From an uncultured Erysipelotrichaceae bacterium (GTDB lineage Bacteria; Bacillota_I; Bacilli_A; Erysipelotrichales; Erysipelotrichaceae), in the NCBI GenBank assembly GCA_964399545.1, contig CAYNRG010000004.1, forward strand, positions 16,735 to 80,734: DNA of 64,000 nt, read 5' to 3'. Position 1 is the stretch's first letter. The number at the start of each line of letters is the position of its first letter. This document shows positions 44,158 through 53,679 of this stretch, piece by piece. The position numbers were made by a program, and so were the translations under genes. Under the pieces are notes generated by a model. The model made no database searches, was not told the DNA's origin, and saw nothing but the letters and a program-made list of their open reading frames with translations.

Positions 44158-44234
44158 GTGCCCGTGGCGCAATTGGATAGCGCATCTGATTCCGATTCAG
44201 ACGGTTGCAGGTTCAAGTCCTGTCGGGCACGCCA
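44158..44234 (+). tRNA. tRNA-Arg (anticodon CCG)
   Basis: A 77-nt cloverleaf folded by hand: acceptor GTGCCCG/CGGGCAC, D-arm GCGC-AATTGGATA-GCGC, anticodon arm TCTGA-TTCCGAT-TCAGA, T-arm GCAGG-TTCAAGT-CCTGT, and an encoded CCA. Confidence 0.9.
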
Positions 44235-44782: not shown

Positions 44783-45256
44783 ATGAAAGATATAAAAAAA
44801 CTAGTTGAAACAACCGAAATGTTCGCTGAGGCGTATTCGTCTTATGTGAGTGTTTACCATCGTCGCCAAAGAAAATTTTCTCTTTATGAGAAAGAAGCTC
44901 AATTTGTGGTGTTAGTGCACACATTGAAAAAATTGAAAGATGAAATTAATATGATGGATCTTTCAAAAGAGTTACATTTGACACCAGGTGCAATTTCTCA
45001 AACTGCATCACGTGCTGAAAGAAAAGGTTATATCAAGCGCGTTATGTCAAAGAGTGATCGAAGATCAAATATTGTTTTATTAACTAAAAAGGGAGAGAAA
45101 TTCTGCCAAGGTTATGAAGACTATATGTTGTCACTAAATGCTACTCTTAAGAAAACATTGTCAGGGCATAGTGCTCATGATATTAATTCATTTATTGAGA
45201 TTCAAGGGAAATTAGCTAAAATGCTAAGAGAACTTTCTTTAAAAGAAGAAACTTAG
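44783..45256 (+). CDS. MarR-family transcriptional regulator
   Basis: Winged-HTH core (..MMDLSKELHLTPGAISQTASRAERKGYIKRVMSKSDRRSNIVLLTKKGE..). Confidence 0.85.
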   Translation: MKDIKKLVETTEMFAEAYSSYVSVYHRRQRKFSLYEKEAQFVVLVHTLKKLKDEINMMDLSKELHLTPGAISQTASRAERKGYIKRVMSKSDRRSNIVLLTKKGEKFCQGYEDYMLSLNATLKKTLSGHSAHDINSFIEIQGKLAKMLRELSLKEET

Positions 45257-45585
45257 TAGACGACCCAACGATTTAAAAGAAATTATAGAGGAAAAAGTAT
45301 TTGAAATCAAATGCTTTTTTTTATGCAAATTTTAGCAACTCTACTTTGCAATTATATAGTAAAGAGGAGATTAATCAGTTTTCAAAGAGACTACGGTAGA
45401 AATAAGCATTTAGAAATAGTAGTCGTTATTGAGGTGGAAAGGTATAATGTCCTAATTGAAAAACTTTTTTTATGAATGGGTGAAAAGCGTTTGGGAATAG
45501 TTAGAAAAATCTAGATTTTTTTAGGAAAATGGAATAAAGAGGATAATTAATTATCAGCAAGTTATTGCAGGAAAGGAGAATTGAA

Positions 45586-45735
45586 ATGAAAGAAATTTTA
45601 CAAGAATATGGAGGGTTTATTTTATCCATTGTCTTAATTGCGGCATTAATTGCTAGTTTAAAATCAGGGTTTATTGGAAAAATTAATGAAAACATTACCT
45701 CGCAATTAGATAAAATTTCAGAAATAGGAAATTAG
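45586..45735 (+). CDS. Flp-like type IVb (Tad) pilin, 49 aa; not in the supplied ORF track (<60 aa)
   Basis: RBS gaaaggag sits 7 nt upstream. The product is MKEILQEYGGFILSIVLIAALIASLKSGF..., with the Flp-type EYG-hydrophobic-IAALIA core. It is the first gene of an operon containing CpaB/TadA/TadB/TadC-like genes. Confidence 0.65.
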   Translation: MKEILQEYGGFILSIVLIAALIASLKSGFIGKINENITSQLDKISEIGN

Positions 45736-45746
45736 TCTAGCAGTAG

Positions 45747-46142
45747 ATGACAGGATTATTAAAAAGCTATGGTGTTTTTCTTCTAGGAATTTTTTGTTTT
45801 ATTTCTCTAATGCTAATGAATCAAAGGCTGGTTTTAGAGGATGAAATTTTTGAAAGTACAAGGCTGACTCAATATTCTGTAATAGAAAATAATATTTTAC
45901 TAGGAGAATTATTTACGAATAAGAAAGTAGTCATTGCAGCAGAGAATTTACCAGCGGAATGGGTAGCGCAGTTTAGGCTCAATATAAATTTAAAAGGAGA
46001 ATACATTATCGAAATTGTAGGCATCCATGAGGATCCGCCAGCAATTGCGGTTCGTGTTCAAGGTAAGGCGAAAAAGAAATGGAGTCAAGAGGAAATACAG
46101 TTGGACTATACAAGTTTAATTTTAATAGAAGAAGGGCGATGA
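45747..46142 (+). CDS. Pilin-like/pseudopilin-like protein (131 aa) sharing the N-terminal register of the Flp-like pilin
   Basis: MTGLLKSYGVFLLGIFCFISL..: Tyr8-Gly9 and then a hydrophobic helix, as in the 49-aa pilin. It starts 11 nt after the pilin stop. Confidence 0.5.
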   Translation: MTGLLKSYGVFLLGIFCFISLMLMNQRLVLEDEIFESTRLTQYSVIENNILLGELFTNKKVVIAAENLPAEWVAQFRLNINLKGEYIIEIVGIHEDPPAIAVRVQGKAKKKWSQEEIQLDYTSLILIEEGR

Positions 46143-46143
46143 A

Positions 46144-46926
46144 ATGAAAAAGCTAAGGATGAAGAATAAAATCTTATGGACAGTACTTTTAGGGAGTTTG
46201 TTGAGTGGTGGGATTTTGATTACTTTACATCAAACTAAAACAGAAATGGAACAGATGGTAGAGATTCCAGTGGCTTTTAGAAAGATTTCTTCAAGGGAGA
46301 TGATTCAGGAAGAAGATATTGTAATGATTTCGATTCCCAAATATGTGCTTTTAGAGGGAGTTATTATGAGCGAAGAGGAAATCATTGGTCAGTATATTAA
46401 ACCTTATCACTCTGTTGTTGAAAATTCCTTATTTTATAAAGATGCGGTTATTCAAAAGGAAAGAATGAATGATGTGGCTTTATTCACATTGGAGCAAGGC
46501 GAGATTGCAGTGACAATTGAAGCAGATATACAAAGTTCTTATGCTAATTCTATTTTAGTAGGTCACCAAATTGATCTTTATTATTTAGGGCAAGCTCGTT
46601 TGAAGAGCGATGTGGATAAAGTGATTATTCATGGTGAAATTGTCAAAAATGCCAGAGTTATAGCTGTGAAAGATAAAGATGGTCTATCTATAGAAGGCAA
46701 TCAAGAGTTAAAAACAGCAATGATTGTTGTAGCGTTGTCAAAAGAAGACGGTCATCTTGTAGAGATAGCAAAGGCCTTAGGGAAAGTAACACCAATCATT
46801 TCTTATGAAAATTTTAATGAGGGAGAAGAAAGTCAATATTACGACATAGAAAAGATGAAAAATATTCTGTTTGGTAATTCCTTGGATGTAACTATTGAAT
46901 CCATCAATGGAGATCAAGATGAATAG
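46144..46926 (+). CDS. CpaB/RcpC-like Flp pilus assembly protein (N-terminal TM, SAF-like domain)
   Basis: A TM anchor followed by a V.IPVA.R.I....I..ED.....IP pattern typical of SAF/CpaB. It sits immediately before the secretion ATPase. Confidence 0.6.
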   Translation: MKKLRMKNKILWTVLLGSLLSGGILITLHQTKTEMEQMVEIPVAFRKISSREMIQEEDIVMISIPKYVLLEGVIMSEEEIIGQYIKPYHSVVENSLFYKDAVIQKERMNDVALFTLEQGEIAVTIEADIQSSYANSILVGHQIDLYYLGQARLKSDVDKVIIHGEIVKNARVIAVKDKDGLSIEGNQELKTAMIVVALSKEDGHLVEIAKALGKVTPIISYENFNEGEESQYYDIEKMKNILFGNSLDVTIESINGDQDE

Positions 46927-47947
46927 TCAAGGATTTAATCATGTAGATTTTGGAGACTTACAGCAATTTTTAGATTATCCAGATGTTACCGATGTATCTT
47001 GTAAAAATGATGGAGAAGTTTGGTTAACATCGAATGAAAGAGGTCATTATTTATCTGATGTGAAGGTTTATGAAAAGGAAGTAATGCGAATTGCAAGCCA
47101 AATTGCTAATAAAATGCAAAAAGAATTTAATCCAGCAAATCCTAATCTAGAAGGAGATATACAAGGAAAAGAGGAAGATTATCGAGTGGGATGTGTCCAT
47201 CGTCATCTATCTCCTTTTGGAACTACATTGGTAATTAGGAAAGTTCGGAAGAAGTTATTCCTCTCCTATAGTCAATTATTAAGGGACAAAAGTATATCAA
47301 AAGAGGCTTTACATTTATTAATCTTAGCTGTTAAATCTGGAATGAATATGATTTTTATTGGTGAAACTGGCAGTGGAAAAACAGAGTTATTAAAATTTTT
47401 ATCACAATATATTCCAAAAGAGGAAGTTGTGGTGACTATTGAAGATTCTATGGAGTTTAATTTAAATCAACTAATTTCAGATCTTTCTTGTACTGCTTTC
47501 CATCTTCGAGAAGGAGTGACGTATCAGCAGATTGTTGCAATGAGTCTAAGGTTGAATGTCCAAAGAATTTTACTTCAAGAGGCTCGAGGAGAAGAGGTGG
47601 ATGATCTATTAGATGCAATGTCTACTGGGCATACGGTTATGACTACTATGCATGCACGCTCTGTTGAAACTGTGTGTTCAAGAATTAAACAAATGCTAAA
47701 GTCTAGTCAAGAGAGCTATGATCATTTACAAGCAAGAGTATATGGGTTAGTGGATTTAGTAGTTTTTATGGAGAAGGAAAAAACTAAAAAGGGAACGCAT
47801 AGGAAAGTAAAGCAAATTGCTCGGTATCAATATTTTTCAAAAGAAAATAGATGGGAATGTAACTTAGTGTATGACTATAATAAGAAACTTTTCCCCATGT
47901 CTTCCGACTTCATTCAAAAATTAATAAAAGGGAAAAGATATGATTGA
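46919..47947 (+). CDS. TadA/CpaF-like secretion ATPase (T2SSE/VirB11 superfamily), short form
   Basis: Walker A GETGSGKTE, Asp-box/Walker B (..RILLQEARGEE..), His-box (..TGHTVMTTMHA..). The start is set at ATG 46919 behind ggag, overlapping the cpaB-like stop. Confidence 0.8.
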   Translation: MNSQGFNHVDFGDLQQFLDYPDVTDVSCKNDGEVWLTSNERGHYLSDVKVYEKEVMRIASQIANKMQKEFNPANPNLEGDIQGKEEDYRVGCVHRHLSPFGTTLVIRKVRKKLFLSYSQLLRDKSISKEALHLLILAVKSGMNMIFIGETGSGKTELLKFLSQYIPKEEVVVTIEDSMEFNLNQLISDLSCTAFHLREGVTYQQIVAMSLRLNVQRILLQEARGEEVDDLLDAMSTGHTVMTTMHARSVETVCSRIKQMLKSSQESYDHLQARVYGLVDLVVFMEKEKTKKGTHRKVKQIARYQYFSKENRWECNLVYDYNKKLFPMSSDFIQKLIKGKRYD

Positions 47948-48812
47948 AGGAATTATTCTTATCAGCGTATTCCTTTTAGTTTGGGTTTTAATTGGTGGGG
48001 AAAGAGCGGATATTGAAAAGTTAGTAGAGAATAGAGTTGTTCAGGAAACGATGGAGCTATCTTATTTTGGTCAAGAGAAGAAATTGGTCAATATTGGAAG
48101 AAAATATTCTTTAAAACAATACTTCCGAGATAGTTTTAAATTGCTTGTCTTTTTTGGCTTTTTAATCTATAGAACAGTAGATGATCTTTATTTGTCACTT
48201 TGGATATGCGGTGTTATTATCTTTTTTTGGCCATACCTTTATTGCCTAAAAGTCATGAATGAAGAGCAAAGGAAAAAAGAGGAATCAGCATTCATTTATA
48301 GTCAGTCCATCTTAGTTTATCTAAGAGAAAATCGAGTGTCGCAGCAGATTCTTTATCAATGTGTAGAGGTGTTAGAGGGAGCATTTAGAACGGATATTGA
48401 AAAAATGATTTCAGTTGTTGAGCAATCCAATCAATTTTCAAAAGGGCTGAAAATGTTGGAAGATAAGTATCCCTATTCAATGATAAAAAATGTTCATATC
48501 TTACTCTTGGGAAAGAAGGATCAAGGTTCGAGCTATCTTAGTCTAGTAGACTATCTTCAGCAAAGCATAGAAAATCATGAAATTTTGCTAAGAGAATTTT
48601 ATAGAAAGAAAGAAACAAATGAAAAGATGTTCTTTATTATTTGTGGATTAAACTTCATTGCGATATCGATGATTATTAAATTCTTTGTAGGTACATCAGA
48701 GATGAGCCTGGGTATAGGGATTAAAATAGTGTTATCTTGTTTTTATTCTTTAAATTTAATAACTATTGTCCTATATGAACGTTGGTGTTTGACTAAAAAT
48801 CACTTAGATTAG
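47940..48812 (+). CDS. TadB-like inner-membrane platform protein (T2SSF-like)
   Basis: An N-terminal TM helix, a central soluble helical region and C-terminal TM helices. It overlaps the ATPase gene by 8 nt. Position and topology fit TadB; there is no HMM confirmation. Confidence 0.5.
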   Translation: MIEGIILISVFLLVWVLIGGERADIEKLVENRVVQETMELSYFGQEKKLVNIGRKYSLKQYFRDSFKLLVFFGFLIYRTVDDLYLSLWICGVIIFFWPYLYCLKVMNEEQRKKEESAFIYSQSILVYLRENRVSQQILYQCVEVLEGAFRTDIEKMISVVEQSNQFSKGLKMLEDKYPYSMIKNVHILLLGKKDQGSSYLSLVDYLQQSIENHEILLREFYRKKETNEKMFFIICGLNFIAISMIIKFFVGTSEMSLGIGIKIVLSCFYSLNLITIVLYERWCLTKNHLD

Positions 48813-48820
48813 GAGGCTTG

Positions 48821-49582
48821 ATGGGAGTGTTGATTATTTTATGTTGCTTTGGGATTTCTTTTCTATGGACAATGGATCATTATCAGATTAATCAGGAAAT
48901 TCATTGGATAGAAAGTTTGATTATCGAGAAAGATTATTTTAGGATGATTCAATTAACAACAGAGAAAACAAGAAGGAAAGCTCTTATGGAGAGGTTGATT
49001 GTCTCTTTTATTGGTGGAATATTGGCCTTTTTTATTTTTGATGGAGAAATTCGAATTGTTTATTCTGCTATAGTTATTCTTGTTATATATAAAGGGATAT
49101 ACTTATCACTAAAAAAGAAAGTTAAAATTCAATTGGAAATTGCTAAAAATGTTTTTCCTTTCTATCTGAATAATTTATGTATTTTAATTCAAACCAATCC
49201 AGTTCCATTGGCTTTGCAAAAATCGATTCAAATGGCTCCTACTATTTTTAAAGATGATTTAGAAATCTTAGTAAAAGAAATTCATGAGGGTAAAAAGGAA
49301 AGGGTTATTCCATATTTAGAATTTGCTCAAAAGTTTGAACAGATTCCAGATTTGATGAGAATTTATAGAACACTATACTATCTTTCTGTAACTGTTGTTC
49401 AAAAGGAAATGATTTTACTATCTTTATGTAAAATCGCTAATGAAAAATTAGTAGAAGAGAGAAAGCGTAAGCTGGATAATTTTTTGGATCACCAATCGCT
49501 TGTTCCGTGGATTGCTTTTTTATGGGTGGGTCTTGTGATTATTGCTTTGTTTAATTTCGTTCATATACAAGGATTTTTATAA
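48821..49582 (+). CDS. TadC-like inner-membrane platform protein (T2SSF-like)
   Basis: Same topology class as the previous gene, with an aggagg RBS. The start codon is ambiguous (TTG 48818, ATG 48821 or GTG 48827). Confidence 0.5.
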   Translation: MGVLIILCCFGISFLWTMDHYQINQEIHWIESLIIEKDYFRMIQLTTEKTRRKALMERLIVSFIGGILAFFIFDGEIRIVYSAIVILVIYKGIYLSLKKKVKIQLEIAKNVFPFYLNNLCILIQTNPVPLALQKSIQMAPTIFKDDLEILVKEIHEGKKERVIPYLEFAQKFEQIPDLMRIYRTLYYLSVTVVQKEMILLSLCKIANEKLVEERKRKLDNFLDHQSLVPWIAFLWVGLVIIALFNFVHIQGFL

Positions 49583-49583
49583 G

Positions 49584-49946
49584 ATGAAGATGCCAGTTCA
49601 AGTTTATGGGATATTATTTGCTTTTTCTCTTTCAATTTTGGTGTTACCACAAATTTTAAACTATGCAATTTGTTATCGCCAATGTAATAGTGTTGCTATG
49701 TATTTTGTAGATGTTGTCGAGGTCTATGATGGTCTTGAAGAAAGAATAATTTATGAAAAGAAGTTGGAAATGAGTAAGAGATATCCAACAATGGAGATTG
49801 AAATTAACCGGGTAATAATTGATCAGCAATATGTTTCTTATCGCGTGGTATGTAAAAAGAAGTTATCGTTCTCCATTTTGAAATTGGATATTACCGTTCA
49901 AGCTGAAAAGCAATCCAAACGGATTGTAGACTGGAGAAGTGAATGA
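49584..49946 (+). CDS. Pilin-like/pseudopilin-like protein (120 aa) with the same Tyr8-Gly9 N-terminal register
   Basis: MKMPVQVYGILFAFSLSILVL... The ATG lies 1 nt after the tadC-like stop. The ORF-track start at 49542 lies inside the upstream gene. Confidence 0.5.
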   Translation: MKMPVQVYGILFAFSLSILVLPQILNYAICYRQCNSVAMYFVDVVEVYDGLEERIIYEKKLEMSKRYPTMEIEINRVIIDQQYVSYRVVCKKKLSFSILKLDITVQAEKQSKRIVDWRSE

Positions 49947-52528
49947 AAAAGGTTATAGGAATAGGGATAATGTGCGTACTGCTGATTAGTCCTCTTCTAG
50001 GAGAGGAAGAACAATGTAAAGCAATTTTTTTGTACTCTAGAAAAGAGTGGATGAGTCATCAAAATTTGATTGATGTTCCTTTTCAAGGAGGTAAGAACCA
50101 CTTCATTAATTCTAAAGGAGTGCAATTATCTTTAAATGTATTTGGTAGCTTTGCAAATCCAGAAATGGAAGATTCATCGTTTTTGTTGGGAGAAAGAGAA
50201 TTAATTAAAGAAGTGCAGACTAAACAGGGGGATCCTATTGTTTTTTCGATGATTTTTTATCAGAATATAAAAATAGGGGAGCTGGAGTTTGAAATGCAAG
50301 CGATTGATAAAGTGACACAGAAGGTATTGGATAAAAAAATACTTATAAATGTGTCAAGTGTAGATGACTTGTACTCCAACCCAGTCGTAATTCCTTCGAG
50401 CACATTGGGAAAAAGGGAAAAAGTTGATTTAAATAACGCAGAAGTTCGGAATGTATTTATTGCTTTTGAACCTACCCCAAATCCAGTAGAGTATCGTTTA
50501 TCTTATTTTCAAGTTAAAGACTATGCAGTTTATAAGCATATTCAATGGCAGGAAGAGGAAATAAAGAATACAGAAGTTAAACAAGTGATATGGTGTCAAA
50601 AAAACGGGAAATTTAATCCAGATGGGACAGGGAATCAATGGGTGAAAGAAGAGGAAACAGGATTTGGCCCTTCGATCCATTTAATTAGTGATTATATACC
50701 AATTATTAAGGAACAGCATTTTAATTATGATCAAGGAAGAGGATCAACTATAAAAGCCTATTCATTGCCTAAAGAATCCGTCCAGTTGGCTAATTATAAT
50801 GTAGTCATTACTGATTGGCAAACACAAGGAGAAAAGCCTTACCTGACATATTACTCTCTGTATGAAGGGAAAAAGTATAGCCCACTTTCAAAGACAGTGG
50901 GAGTACAATATATAGCAATTCCAGTTTATTGGGATGTGCGGAAAAGAACCCATTATGCATCGGTTTTATCATACAATAAAGACTGGTGTTACCATGTGAG
51001 TGGTAAAAAGGAAATTCCATGTTACAAGCATTTTGGACATTCTTCAGAGGGACGATTAAATTCATATGACATCAAAGTTAATGTTTGGGACCAAGTGGTG
51101 GATCCAGATTATCAAAAAGTAGAAAAAGCAATTTATTCCGTTTATAAAAATGGAGAGAAACAGTTTGAGATACAAGGAAAAGAGGAATTGAAGAGGTTTA
51201 AATTTAATGAAACAGGGATTTGGGAAGTGAAAGCGATTATTTATGATGGTGTGGGGCAACAAGGCGAAGTAAGATCGAAGAAATTTTATATTGACCAAGA
51301 TAAACCAAATATTGAAATTAATAGTAGTATGGAAGAACGGAAATTTAATATTAGAGTTAGTGATGACCACTCAGGGGTGAAGAGATGGTGGTACTTTGTA
51401 TCTAATGATGATGGGGAATCGTATTACTACCAAAGTGATATTTTGACAACGATTGAAGAAACCATTAGGTTAGAAAATCCAGGAGAGTACATTGTTGATG
51501 TTTTTTGTGAGGATCAAGTTGGAAATCTTCAAGAGAAAAGAAGTGAGAGAATAGAGGTTAAAGAGGAGAATATTGTACTCGATAAAGTTTTTGCTCCTGT
51601 ATATGAACAAGGAGTGGAAACTCAGCTCTATGTTCAATATCAGTGTGGTAGTTGTTCTTTTGGAAATCCACAAGAAGTAGCTATTTTTATAGGCGAAGAT
51701 AAGCTAGTTGACGATTGGATAATAACGGATGAATACCGCACTACCTACACTTATCGTACCCGAAATGAGGCTTTTGTAGATATAAGGATAGAAACAAGTC
51801 GTTGGGATAAAACCTTGCGAGTTCATGAAAAGAGTTATCGTCATAAGCAAAGTAACGATGAAGTTAATTTTGATGAAATTGTTGTTAGCTCTTTAGATAG
51901 GCTGGGGAATCAAGTTGACTTTAAAGAGAGAATTCAATTAAAGATTAATCAAGATAAAAAAACTTATTTTTCAGGAGAGGGAATGGAACAAGAAGTTCTT
52001 GTGGACTATAGGAATGAATGCACAGGGTACGAAAGTTTCAACTGTACTCCAAGTGCTTTGCAAGAAAAATGGCAAGGCAGTGCTTCAATGTGGTATGAAG
52101 ATTGTGCTTACCCATTAAATCAAGAGCGAAAAGTAGAGGACAAATATAGGACGAATCTAGAATTTGAAAATGGTAAATATCAGTTACCTATTCTATATCT
52201 TCATCCTCGAACAGGATTTGTATATGATAAAGAAACTCTAGATTTGATGGATGGTGGAAGAAGGTGGTACTCTAATCCAAAGTCATCACAAGGTGAGTAT
52301 TCAGTGGAGGCTAAAGGGGAACAGTTAGGAGTTAATCAAGTGAGTTGGATACTAAAAACAGTGTATGAGATTGACCAAAGCTATAAGGAGAAGTATCATA
52401 TTCGATTTTTCCATCAGAAAGAACCTTTTCCAAAAGGGATGAGTACATGGTGGGAGAAGAGTAAGGAATGGATAGAGAATCTTAGATTAGAAAATCCAGT
52501 TTTTTCAACTGAAATTAGGAGTGATTAG
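49943..52528 (+). CDS. Large secreted protein (861 aa), function unknown; putative pilus-associated adhesin
   Basis: ATGA overlap with the upstream gene and a hydrophobic N-terminal signal (MKKVIGIGIMCVLLISPLLG). The sequence is rich in beta-strand-prone and aromatic residues, and one Ig-like-looking segment (..NIRVSDDHSGVKRWWYFVSNDDG..) is present. No catalytic motif was recognised. Confidence 0.6.
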   Translation: MKKVIGIGIMCVLLISPLLGEEEQCKAIFLYSRKEWMSHQNLIDVPFQGGKNHFINSKGVQLSLNVFGSFANPEMEDSSFLLGERELIKEVQTKQGDPIVFSMIFYQNIKIGELEFEMQAIDKVTQKVLDKKILINVSSVDDLYSNPVVIPSSTLGKREKVDLNNAEVRNVFIAFEPTPNPVEYRLSYFQVKDYAVYKHIQWQEEEIKNTEVKQVIWCQKNGKFNPDGTGNQWVKEEETGFGPSIHLISDYIPIIKEQHFNYDQGRGSTIKAYSLPKESVQLANYNVVITDWQTQGEKPYLTYYSLYEGKKYSPLSKTVGVQYIAIPVYWDVRKRTHYASVLSYNKDWCYHVSGKKEIPCYKHFGHSSEGRLNSYDIKVNVWDQVVDPDYQKVEKAIYSVYKNGEKQFEIQGKEELKRFKFNETGIWEVKAIIYDGVGQQGEVRSKKFYIDQDKPNIEINSSMEERKFNIRVSDDHSGVKRWWYFVSNDDGESYYYQSDILTTIEETIRLENPGEYIVDVFCEDQVGNLQEKRSERIEVKEENIVLDKVFAPVYEQGVETQLYVQYQCGSCSFGNPQEVAIFIGEDKLVDDWIITDEYRTTYTYRTRNEAFVDIRIETSRWDKTLRVHEKSYRHKQSNDEVNFDEIVVSSLDRLGNQVDFKERIQLKINQDKKTYFSGEGMEQEVLVDYRNECTGYESFNCTPSALQEKWQGSASMWYEDCAYPLNQERKVEDKYRTNLEFENGKYQLPILYLHPRTGFVYDKETLDLMDGGRRWYSNPKSSQGEYSVEAKGEQLGVNQVSWILKTVYEIDQSYKEKYHIRFFHQKEPFPKGMSTWWEKSKEWIENLRLENPVFSTEIRSD

Positions 52529-52546
52529 ATTCACTCTCTTTTTTTG
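52518..52546 (+). terminator. Rho-independent terminator ending the Tad-like operon
   Basis: ggagtga-ttagat-tcactct followed by cttttttt. It overlaps the stop codon. Confidence 0.75.
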
Positions 52547-52590
52547 AAGTGCAGAACATGGTATGATAAGAGAAATAGGCGGTGAATTAA

Positions 52591-53679
52591 ATGAAGATTT
52601 TGGTTACTGGATCCAGTGGATTCATTGGAAAGAATTTATGTTTATCATTAGAGTATCAAGGGTATGAGGTTTATCGGTTTGATGTTGACAATACAAAATC
52701 GGAACTAAGAATGATGATCAAAAACTGTGATTTTATTATGCATTTAGCAGGGATTAATCGTCCACTAGCACCTGAAGAGTTTTATGATGGAAATGTTCGA
52801 TTGACACAATGGTTGGTCCAAATTATTGAAGAAGAAAGAAAAACTGTACCTCTTTTATTTAGCTCGACAATTCAAGCAGAGCAGTTTAATGATTATGGAA
52901 AAAGCAAGCGTCAAGCAGAGGAGGTTGTTTCCGAATATGCACTGAGAACAGGGAGTGATATCTTTATCTATCGGTTAGCGAATGCTTTTGGGAAATGGTG
53001 TCGCCCTAACTATAATTCTCAAGTAGCAACTTTTTGTCATATGGTAGCAAATGATTTAGATTTTAAAGTTACAGTACCTAATGCGATTGTGCCATTAGTT
53101 TATATTGATGATATTGTTCATTCATTTATGACATGTATTGGTAAGCCGGGAAGCATGGAGGTTCAAGAAGTTGATCCTACCTATAAAATCTCAGTAGGGA
53201 AGCTAGCAGATACAATTAAGTCCTTTAAAGATTATCGAGAAAATAAAAGGATTCAATATGATAAAAGCGAGTTAGAAAGAAAACTATACACGACATATTT
53301 AAGCTATGTACCAGAAGAGAAACTGATAGGATCATTAGGCTGGGAAGTAGACGCATATGATTTCTTAAAAAGTGATTCTTTTGGTAAGCTATCTATACGT
53401 TATTTACAACCAGGTGAAGTTTCTGGAAATCATTGGCATGGGAAAAGAAGTGAACGATATGTAGTAGTAGCGGGATGTGGAAAAATGAAGATGCGCCGAA
53501 TAGGGAGTGAACAAATAATTGAACATCACTTATCTAGGGAAAAGATTCAGGTTGTTGATATTCCGGTAGGTTATGTGCATTCTATTGAAAATATAGGAGA
53601 TAGTGAGCTGGTTCTTTTAGTTTGGTCTGAAGCATATGAGCATGATCGAAACAGTGATATTTTTGAAGAGCAGGTGTAG
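52591..53679 (+). CDS. CapF-like bifunctional SDR/cupin enzyme (UDP-6-deoxy-hexosamine pathway reductase/epimerase)
   Basis: N-terminal GSSGFIGKN Rossmann motif and ..YG.SK.. with GKWCRPNYNS..ATFC. C-terminal cupin region ..GNHWH.., ..VVDIPVGYVHSIENIGD... It is collinear with S. aureus CapF as remembered. Confidence 0.8.
   Translation: MKILVTGSSGFIGKNLCLSLEYQGYEVYRFDVDNTKSELRMMIKNCDFIMHLAGINRPLAPEEFYDGNVRLTQWLVQIIEEERKTVPLLFSSTIQAEQFNDYGKSKRQAEEVVSEYALRTGSDIFIYRLANAFGKWCRPNYNSQVATFCHMVANDLDFKVTVPNAIVPLVYIDDIVHSFMTCIGKPGSMEVQEVDPTYKISVGKLADTIKSFKDYRENKRIQYDKSELERKLYTTYLSYVPEEKLIGSLGWEVDAYDFLKSDSFGKLSIRYLQPGEVSGNHWHGKRSERYVVVAGCGKMKMRRIGSEQIIEHHLSREKIQVVDIPVGYVHSIENIGDSELVLLVWSEAYEHDRNSDIFEEQV

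Follow-up and report, generated by a model that had tools for sequence, protein, structure and literature searches.

Related systems and the locus under study

The filament machines of the Flp/Tad type (PilA/Cpa of Caulobacter, Flp1/Tad of Aggregatibacter) are among the described systems with which the locus reported here can best be compared, an operon of eight head-to-tail genes on the + strand (positions 45586-52528) of a stretch of 64,000 nucleotides (nt) from an uncultured Erysipelotrichaceae bacterium (contig CAYNRG010000004.1, positions 16,735 to 80,734; hereafter the window). As in Flp/Tad systems, the genes of a CpaB/RcpC protein, of an ATPase of the CpaF/TadA type and of two platform-like proteins paralogous to each other share a single operon with that of a small pilin candidate. 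The Flp-type pilin has about 45-60 amino acids (aa), consists of hardly more than one helix and bears adjacent Glu-Tyr-Gly residues where the hydrophobic helix begins, and the candidate shares these traits; in addition, two larger pilin-like proteins share the N-terminal motif of the pilin, as TadE and TadF do. The operon differs from Flp/Tad loci in that it has neither tadV nor tadZ, no Gly-ended leader before Glu-Tyr and no matches to the Flp, TadE and T2SSF models. Its ATPase is short, with an equally good score for VirB11, its larger subunits have no Glu5, and it encodes an extra large Sec-secreted protein.

Operons combining DUF5411, CpaF and PilC/GspF proteins occur in another host taxon, the gut Clostridia (Roseburia, Ruminococcus, Eubacterium). 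They resemble the present one in having eight to nine genes, which include those of a CpaF-like ATPase, a platform protein, a DUF5411 protein and a large surface protein, the rest being unrecognisable. This type of operon was flagged in 2022 as a putative secretion system, with no mention of a prepilin peptidase (PMC9523054), and Gram-positive tad-like loci lacking a recognisable prepilin had been noted in 2011 (PMC3244431). Class III signals (type IVa, Com and archaeal pilins) would be comparable if Gly9 of the pilin candidate were the residue at −1 of a cleavage site, since they have a short hydrophilic leader ended by Gly and a hydrophobic helix, and many archaeal pilins have no Glu5 (PMC4471445). 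Unlike them, however, the segment in question has an invariant length across paralogues, ends in an aromatic residue followed by Gly, carries a net charge of zero or below in the major pilin and has no linked cognate peptidase. Finally, a matching gene order around the ATPase is found in conjugative plasmids of Firmicutes, namely in genes 36-41 of plasmid pLS20 and in plasmids of the pXO2/pAW63 family (PMC8557374).

In this study, we propose, at a rough probability of 0.45, that the operon encodes Flp/TadE-like subunits which are used uncleaved, their N-terminus being the one that the start codon defines.

The 49-aa gene and its start codon

A first-pass annotation of the window, made from the sequence alone, had placed an unannotated 49-aa pilin gene with a good ribosome-binding site (RBS) at 45586-45735. 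About 30 homologues, the strong RBS and synonymous codon variation corroborated it. The open reading frame (ORF) running from ATG 45586 to TAG 45735 encodes MKEILQEYGGFILSIVLIAALIASLKSGFIGKINENITSQLDKISEIGN. Its 13 close homologues (P0001-P0013) all begin with MKE[IL]xQE[YF]GG, as do five further clusters (P0016-P0020) from a profile search run exhaustively over 1.8 billion representatives, and the pilin of a more divergent cassette begins with MKAFFEEYGL. Residues 1-10 are the best-conserved part of the protein, and at positions 2, 3 and 6-10 the residue remains constant under several synonymous codons. The 49-aa gene is thus a real gene under purifying selection, and homologues and codon pattern together rule out a chance ORF. 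Its exact product was not found in a collection of 5.8 billion proteins (best match, 92% identical), which does contain the product of the neighbouring DUF5411 gene at 100%, so that gene callers missed the gene in this genome; evidently, the short first genes of such operons escape them. The Anaerorhabdus homologues are annotated as hypothetical proteins.

With respect to the start codon, an in-frame TAA lies 14 codons upstream (45544-45546) and the 13 intervening codons (LIISKLLQERRIE) hold no Gly, in agreement with the first-pass annotation. The sole in-frame upstream start, TTG 45565, is located 5' of the RBS and is not conserved. The same ATG is preceded by an AGGAG-type RBS in 18 related loci, most of which have in-frame stops at most 15 codons upstream, and the other upstream in-frame codons are not conserved. 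A longer leader arising from an upstream start was therefore discarded for this gene. As regards the two larger proteins, Met1 is the earliest possible ORF start of the DUF5411 protein in every locus examined and of the 120-aa protein in most of them. A Sec-secreted peptide was also rejected, given that the 49-aa protein has no AxA-type site, its h-region is too long and its N-terminus is the conserved part.

In locus L003 (10001-10153 and 10172-10324), and likewise in L004 and L030, the pilin gene is present twice in tandem, with 18 nt between the copies. These differ chiefly in their C-terminal tail and recall the flp1/flp2 pairs of classical tad loci.

A register shared by three protein families

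Related cassettes were gathered from 18 genome loci, several metagenome or assembly loci and the window, approximately 30 in all, belonging to Anaerorhabdus, Holdemania and other Erysipelotrichaceae. Their gene order is constant everywhere while their genomic context varies. From these, 17 pilins, 18 DUF5411 proteins and 17 copies of the 120-aa family were aligned, and no gap appeared in the first 12 columns of the 52 sequences. Position 5 is aliphatic in all of them and position 6 is Lys, Gln or Glu in 50; position 8 is aromatic in 51 of the 52, and position 9 is Gly or Ala without exception, with Ser found there in a few further sequences outside this set. Within the pilins, E7 and G9 are invariant and position 8 is Tyr in 16 of 17 and Phe in the remaining one. 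The ungapped alignment from Met1 reported in the first-pass annotation for the three proteins of the window is thereby extended to their orthologues. The Tyr8-Gly9 pair described there is fixed as a pair formed by an aromatic and a small residue, not as strict Tyr-Gly (Tyr, Phe or Trp at 8; Gly, Ala or rarely Ser at 9).

The homology of the N-terminal modules was also evident in profile comparisons. The hhalign program aligned residues 1-21 of the DUF5411 family with residues 1-21 of the 120-aa family (E = 5.6e-6), and the pilin with each of the other two from Met1 and without shift (E about 2-3e-3). When all possible starts in the window were considered (1310 positions in six frames followed by at least 40 codons before a stop), only those of these three proteins showed M-x6-[YFW]-[GA] followed by a hydrophobic stretch. 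The shared register exceeds chance. Moreover, the DUF5411 protein matched PF17424 with 75.5 bits (cut-off 30), its residues 1-127 covering profile positions 1-130, which indicates that the family model likewise begins at Met1. No description of a Met1-anchored register was found in the searchable literature.

Two genomes carry two divergent cassettes each (L015 and L017 in the metagenome-assembled genome (MAG) CAMQTJ01; L011 and L023 in MAG CAYLQY01), and the register is kept in all three proteins of these. The L023 set reads MKAFFEEYGL, MSGAIAFYGL and MKQVIGAYGL, so that the residues after the aromatic one seem to co-vary per cassette.

Prepilin peptidase and N-terminal processing

No A24 peptidase ORF with the GxGDxK motif was detected in about 490 kb comprising the window, the cassettes and their flanks, nor in 97 kb of metagenome loci, and none of the membrane proteins of the 64-kb window matched Peptidase_A24. 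The TadC-like polytopic protein was considered as a hidden peptidase and discarded, given that it has no invariant Asp, is a paralogue of its neighbour and has a soluble middle part that is T2SSF-like by eye; among 14 members of its family, one gave a weak match to Peptidase_A24 (E = 0.023). The missing peptidase to which the first-pass annotation had referred is thus a property of the locus only: it holds for the operon, the window and the approximately 30 cassettes with their flanks.

Several observations argue for subunits that are not cleaved. In canonical systems, such as the pilin sets of Pseudomonas aeruginosa and Bacillus subtilis, leader length differs between paralogues and invariance is counted from the mature N-terminus. 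A register that is counted from Met1 and free of insertions and deletions in three paralogous families therefore favours the absence of cleavage. The occasional Ala or Ser at position 9 suits helix packing better than a role as the −1 residue of a cleavage site. In this regard, Tyr6 is common to all Tad pilins and determines the helical register in the Tad pilus of Caulobacter, where Gly7 forms part of the packed core (PMC10710030); such roles would explain why the three families all retain an aromatic residue followed by a small one. It must be noted, too, that most tad loci carry a tadV of their own (PMC3244431) and these cassettes never do, which also favours the absence of cleavage. In the AlphaFold2 (AF2) model of the DUF5411 protein, the predicted helix begins at residue 2, with no distinct leader segment.

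According to this proposal, the filament machine encoded by the operon would be a divergent form of Tad-like (type IVc-related) machinery from monoderm bacteria, in which the ATPase, CpaB, the two platform paralogues and the large secreted partner would serve three subunits, namely the 49-aa major one, the DUF5411 protein and the 120-aa protein. These would share one N-terminal assembly module beginning at the initiator Met and equivalent to the mature N-terminus of Flp/TadE-type subunits, that is, polar residues, an aromatic residue with Gly or Ala, and the hydrophobic alpha1 helix, with Tyr8-Gly9 corresponding to Tyr6-Gly7 of Flp and the leader replaced by only one or two residues. The short Lys-containing stub would insert the subunits with the N-terminus inside, and polymerisation would proceed without cleavage by a prepilin peptidase. 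The start codon would then have taken over the role of the cleavage site, and the peptidase gene would have been lost from the cassette; a simple evolutionary path would be that the start codon moved to where cleavage had taken place and that the peptidase gene was lost afterwards. Of the two possibilities considered in the first-pass annotation, a very short leader and an effectively leaderless pilin, it is the second one that we favour, given the register fixed to Met1, the lack of a longer leader and the lack of Gly upstream of Glu-Tyr. Indeed, only Met1-Lys2 precede the position equivalent to Glu5-Tyr6, where a canonical prepilin would have a leader ended by Gly four residues before.

A number of points weigh against this proposal. 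The comG competence loci, which need an A24 peptidase of the ComC type, are reportedly widespread in Erysipelotrichales (PMC12786226), which makes it likely that genomes of this order encode such a peptidase. With K2, E3, Q6 and E7, residues 1-8 of the pilin form a rather polar segment ended by Gly, which formally resembles a class III leader (PMC4471445). The first nine residues of the Caulobacter pilin are packed tightly in the filament (PMC10710030), and two extra residues could consequently be accommodated only by another mode of packing. Neither of the larger proteins has Glu at the position equivalent to Glu5. None of the three proteins matches the pilin models (Flp, TadE) of Pfam and NCBIfam, and the hhalign alignment of the pilin with Caulobacter PilA (its mature sequence confirmed through PDB 8U1K), which places QEYGGFI on IEYGLIV, is not significant (probability 3%). 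Lastly, the related plasmid modules described below have small proteins without the Met1...aromatic8-Gly9 register (e.g., MLDQNTDRASWG-, MNQGPKW- and MEHGINH-), from which it follows that the register is inessential to the wider machine family.

The strongest alternative is a short class III signal, cut after Gly/Ala9 by an A24 peptidase encoded elsewhere in the genome (such as ComC), which would leave a hydrophobic mature N-terminus without Glu5. It would account for the Gly or Ala at position 9 in 52 of 52 sequences with the hydrophobic helix directly after it. The length of nine residues, regarded as very short in the first-pass annotation, is normal for this class, as published leaders have 6-26 aa and those of type IVa fewer than 10 (PMC4471445); what stands of that remark is the departure from Flp/TadV processing and from the Glu5 rule. 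Mature subunits without Glu5 occur among many archaeal pilins (PMC4471445), and Tad systems are thought to derive from archaeal ones (PMC10710030). The segment, although formally within the published range, nevertheless contains I4, L5 and Y8, shows the highest conservation within the pilin and has the same length in three paralogous families. Cleavage after residue 9 would give Ser, Gly or Phe at +5, not Glu; in uncleaved subunits, Glu would stand at positions 3 and 7 of the major pilin, with no counterpart in the two larger proteins. The aromatic residue conserved at −2 is not known to play a part in recognition by A24 peptidases, and we know of none that requires it. Work with mutants of G−1 in PilA reportedly indicates that Ala, or an occasional Ser, at −1 is poor for bacterial peptidases. 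A leader ending precisely in the Glu-Tyr-Gly motif of Flp would be a coincidence, and the lack of a peptidase in every cassette, set against its presence in most tad loci, speaks against cleavage as well. We consider this alternative less probable than the absence of cleavage.

Proposed pilin-like character of the three proteins

The term pilin-like is used here on the grounds of operon context, of the N-terminal module that the three proteins share and of their shape. The context is that of a machine with a Tad-type ATPase, CpaB and a platform-like pair; such a machine requires a subunit to polymerise, and no other gene of the operon could play that part. The sequence of the 49-aa protein, with E7-Y8-G9 followed by the hydrophobic stretch G10-L25, fits the Flp layout (Glu-Tyr-Gly/Ala, about 20 hydrophobic residues, 40-60 aa). 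As for shape, the AF2 model of the DUF5411 protein has a mean predicted local distance difference test score (pLDDT) of 81 and consists of a helix (residues 2-48) and a small alpha/beta domain with three strands, and the AF2 single-sequence model of the 120-aa protein (pLDDT 67) has a helix at residues 5-45 and a four-stranded sheet. In both models, a long N-terminal helix joined to a small domain is predicted, which is the general architecture of pilins. Comparisons with known pilins gave no significant matches: no Pfam match to Flp/Fap (PF04964) at E ≤ 10 was obtained for the 17 members of the pilin family, nor to TadE (PF07811) at E ≤ 1 for the 131-aa and 120-aa proteins; a PDB profile search of the pilin returned noise only, and a Foldseek search with the DUF5411 model gave no significant match and no solved pilin (best E about 0.1). 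The label of pilin given in the first-pass annotation therefore keeps the backing of context, module and shape, and lacks that of the Flp and TadE models, the product at 45747 belonging to DUF5411.

These negative results would be expected if the N-termini were mere signal-anchors, the DUF5411 and 120-aa proteins being bitopic machine parts (of a PilN/PilO-like alignment or stator type, or of a type IV secretion system (T4SS)) and the 49-aa protein a small membrane component, and a short stub in the cytoplasm, with an aromatic residue at the membrane interface and a small one where the transmembrane helix starts, would fit such a role, as would the homologues of the 120-aa and platform-like proteins in conjugation operons of the pLS20 family, which have plain anchors and no register (PMC8557374); nonetheless, this explanation is improbable in view of the polymerising subunit that the machine requires, the predicted pilin architecture, the identical register of three families and the invariant decapeptide, neither of which a plain anchor needs, and the position of the 49-aa gene as the first of the operon, with the strongest RBS and tandem duplication in some loci. 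Duplication in tandem is a habit of flp genes.

Related modules on plasmids and in other genomes

In the plasmid modules, a 126-130-aa N-anchored protein and the ATPase are followed by two polytopic proteins (about 270 and 240 aa), a second N-anchored protein (120 aa) and a one-helix protein of 47 aa, with a large adhesin nearby. They differ from the present operon in being plasmid-borne and embedded in a T4SS operon; moreover, there is no CpaB gene in the pLS20-type loci examined, whereas the pXO2-like locus has a CpaB-like ORF. In pLS20, gene 37 is listed as a putative VirB11 and genes 36 and 38-41 as unknown (PMC8557374). The TadC-like protein of the window aligned with the pLS20 gene-39-like protein of locus L026 (hhalign probability 96%, E = 4e-9) and the 120-aa protein with a gene-40-like protein of the pLS20 family (E = 3.4e-6), while homology of the DUF5411 protein to this module is merely hinted at (E = 0.03). 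The C-terminus of the 861-aa protein is 24% identical to a pXO2-28-like "conjugal transfer protein" of Bacillus thuringiensis plasmids. More tentatively than for the uncleaved subunits, we suggest that the operon encodes a type IV filament system independent of any prepilin peptidase, and that the block of "VirB11 + unknowns" of pLS20/pXO2-type plasmids may encode it as well.

Candidate Tad-like modules were located at L026:6395-10644, L028:4209-8033 and L006:7225-14022 (Paraclostridium, Listeria and Bacillus plasmids, including pXO2/pAW63-like ones of B. thuringiensis). Word-indexed searches returned Erysipelotrichaceae only and no DUF5411 systems of Clostridia; the DUF5411 and TadC-like alignments were too variable for scans of loci. 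The metagenome scan added members of the same clade and a single unrelated archaeal locus. The latter, an archaeal-type pilus locus (L039:4200-13500), encodes a FlaI-like ATPase (31% identity to the operon ATPase), a FlaJ-like protein and several pilins with class III signals of the KG/ISPVIATVLL type.

Organization of the operon and its surroundings

The organization of the operon is provided in Table 1. The nearest proteins and loci of the window belong to Anaerorhabdus and Holdemania (Erysipelotrichaceae), and the host is an Anaerorhabdus-like Firmicute of the gut.

Table 1. Features of the operon and of the adjacent region (window coordinates)
Feature	Position	Strand	Evidence and remarks
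tRNA-Arg(CCG)	44158-44234	+	Upstream of the MarR gene (distance, 0.55 kb) and of the operon
MarR-family regulator gene	44783..45256	+	Pfam MarR_2, 1.3e-8; immediately 5' of the operon
RBS of the pilin gene, AAAGGAGA	45572..45579	+	Sequence; 6 nt ahead of ATG 45586
49-aa Flp-like major pilin candidate	45586..45735	+	MKEILQEYGG, 16-residue hydrophobic helix, amphipathic tail; first gene of the operon
131-aa DUF5411 protein, minor-pilin-like (MTGLLKSYGVF...)	45747..46142	+	Pfam PF17424
CpaB/RcpC-like protein	46144..46926	+	Pfam RcpC, 30.4 bits (cut-off 28.8); TIGR03177 CpaB, 8e-12, under cut-off
CpaF/TadA/VirB11-like secretion ATPase, short form, 350 aa	46895..47947	+	Pfam T2SSE, 4.2e-30
Polytopic platform-like protein (TadB-like)	47940..48812	+	Paralogue of the next gene; no Pfam match
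Polytopic platform-like protein (TadC-like)	48818..49582	+	Paralogue of the preceding gene
120-aa second minor-pilin-like subunit (MKMPVQVYGIL...)	49584..49946	+	Register kept in 17 orthologues
861-aa protein with ordinary Sec-type N-terminus	49943..52528	+	Orthologues carry PF27438 PXO2_28_C
Terminator-like hairpin and T-run, end of the operon	52518..52547	+	Sole such site on either strand in 45200-52700

The orthologues of the CpaB/RcpC-like protein carry PF16976. The best NCBIfam matches of the ATPase were the TadA family TIGR03819 (2e-36) and VirB11 (5.5e-36), both under the curated cut-offs. The paralogy of the two polytopic proteins was seen with hhalign (probability 90%, E = 1.5e-6, 181 columns), and neither a T2SSF match in Pfam nor a sequence match in PDB was obtained for them; a paralogous pair at this position of the operon is the TadB/TadC arrangement. 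An AAGGA sequence lies 10 nt upstream of the 120-aa gene. The 861-aa protein is probably a surface or adhesin partner. In Holdemania filiformis DSM 12042 (L019:13174-16712), this large last gene is split into ORFs of 452 and 657 aa, which may represent a pseudogene or an assembly error; in L018 and L020 it is one ORF of about 1180 aa. TadZ/CpaE and TadV were found neither among the eight genes of the operon nor in the rest of the window or in related loci.

With regard to the upstream region, a MarR-like gene occupies the equivalent position in the closest loci (L007 and L014) and other loci have different upstream genes; regulation of the operon by the MarR-family gene is possible. In the A. 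furcosa group (L005/L008:8170-8493, L009 and L010), a TfoX_N-domain protein and a transporter of the major facilitator superfamily replace MarR upstream of the cassette. No island-like shift in guanine plus cytosine content was observed at the operon, which lies beside tRNA-Arg, though the context of the cassette varies between genera.

Implications

PilFind and the Pfam pilin models rely on the G/xxxxE signature. If the pilin reading were correct, DUF5411 would receive a name, as would several "unknown" genes of the conjugation operons of the pLS20 type. The cassette is present in cultured strains, namely A. furcosa ATCC 25662, Holdemania filiformis DSM 12042 and H. massiliensis AP2. Should assembly without cleavage be true, the peptidase step would be dispensable and the way in which such systems are searched for would change.

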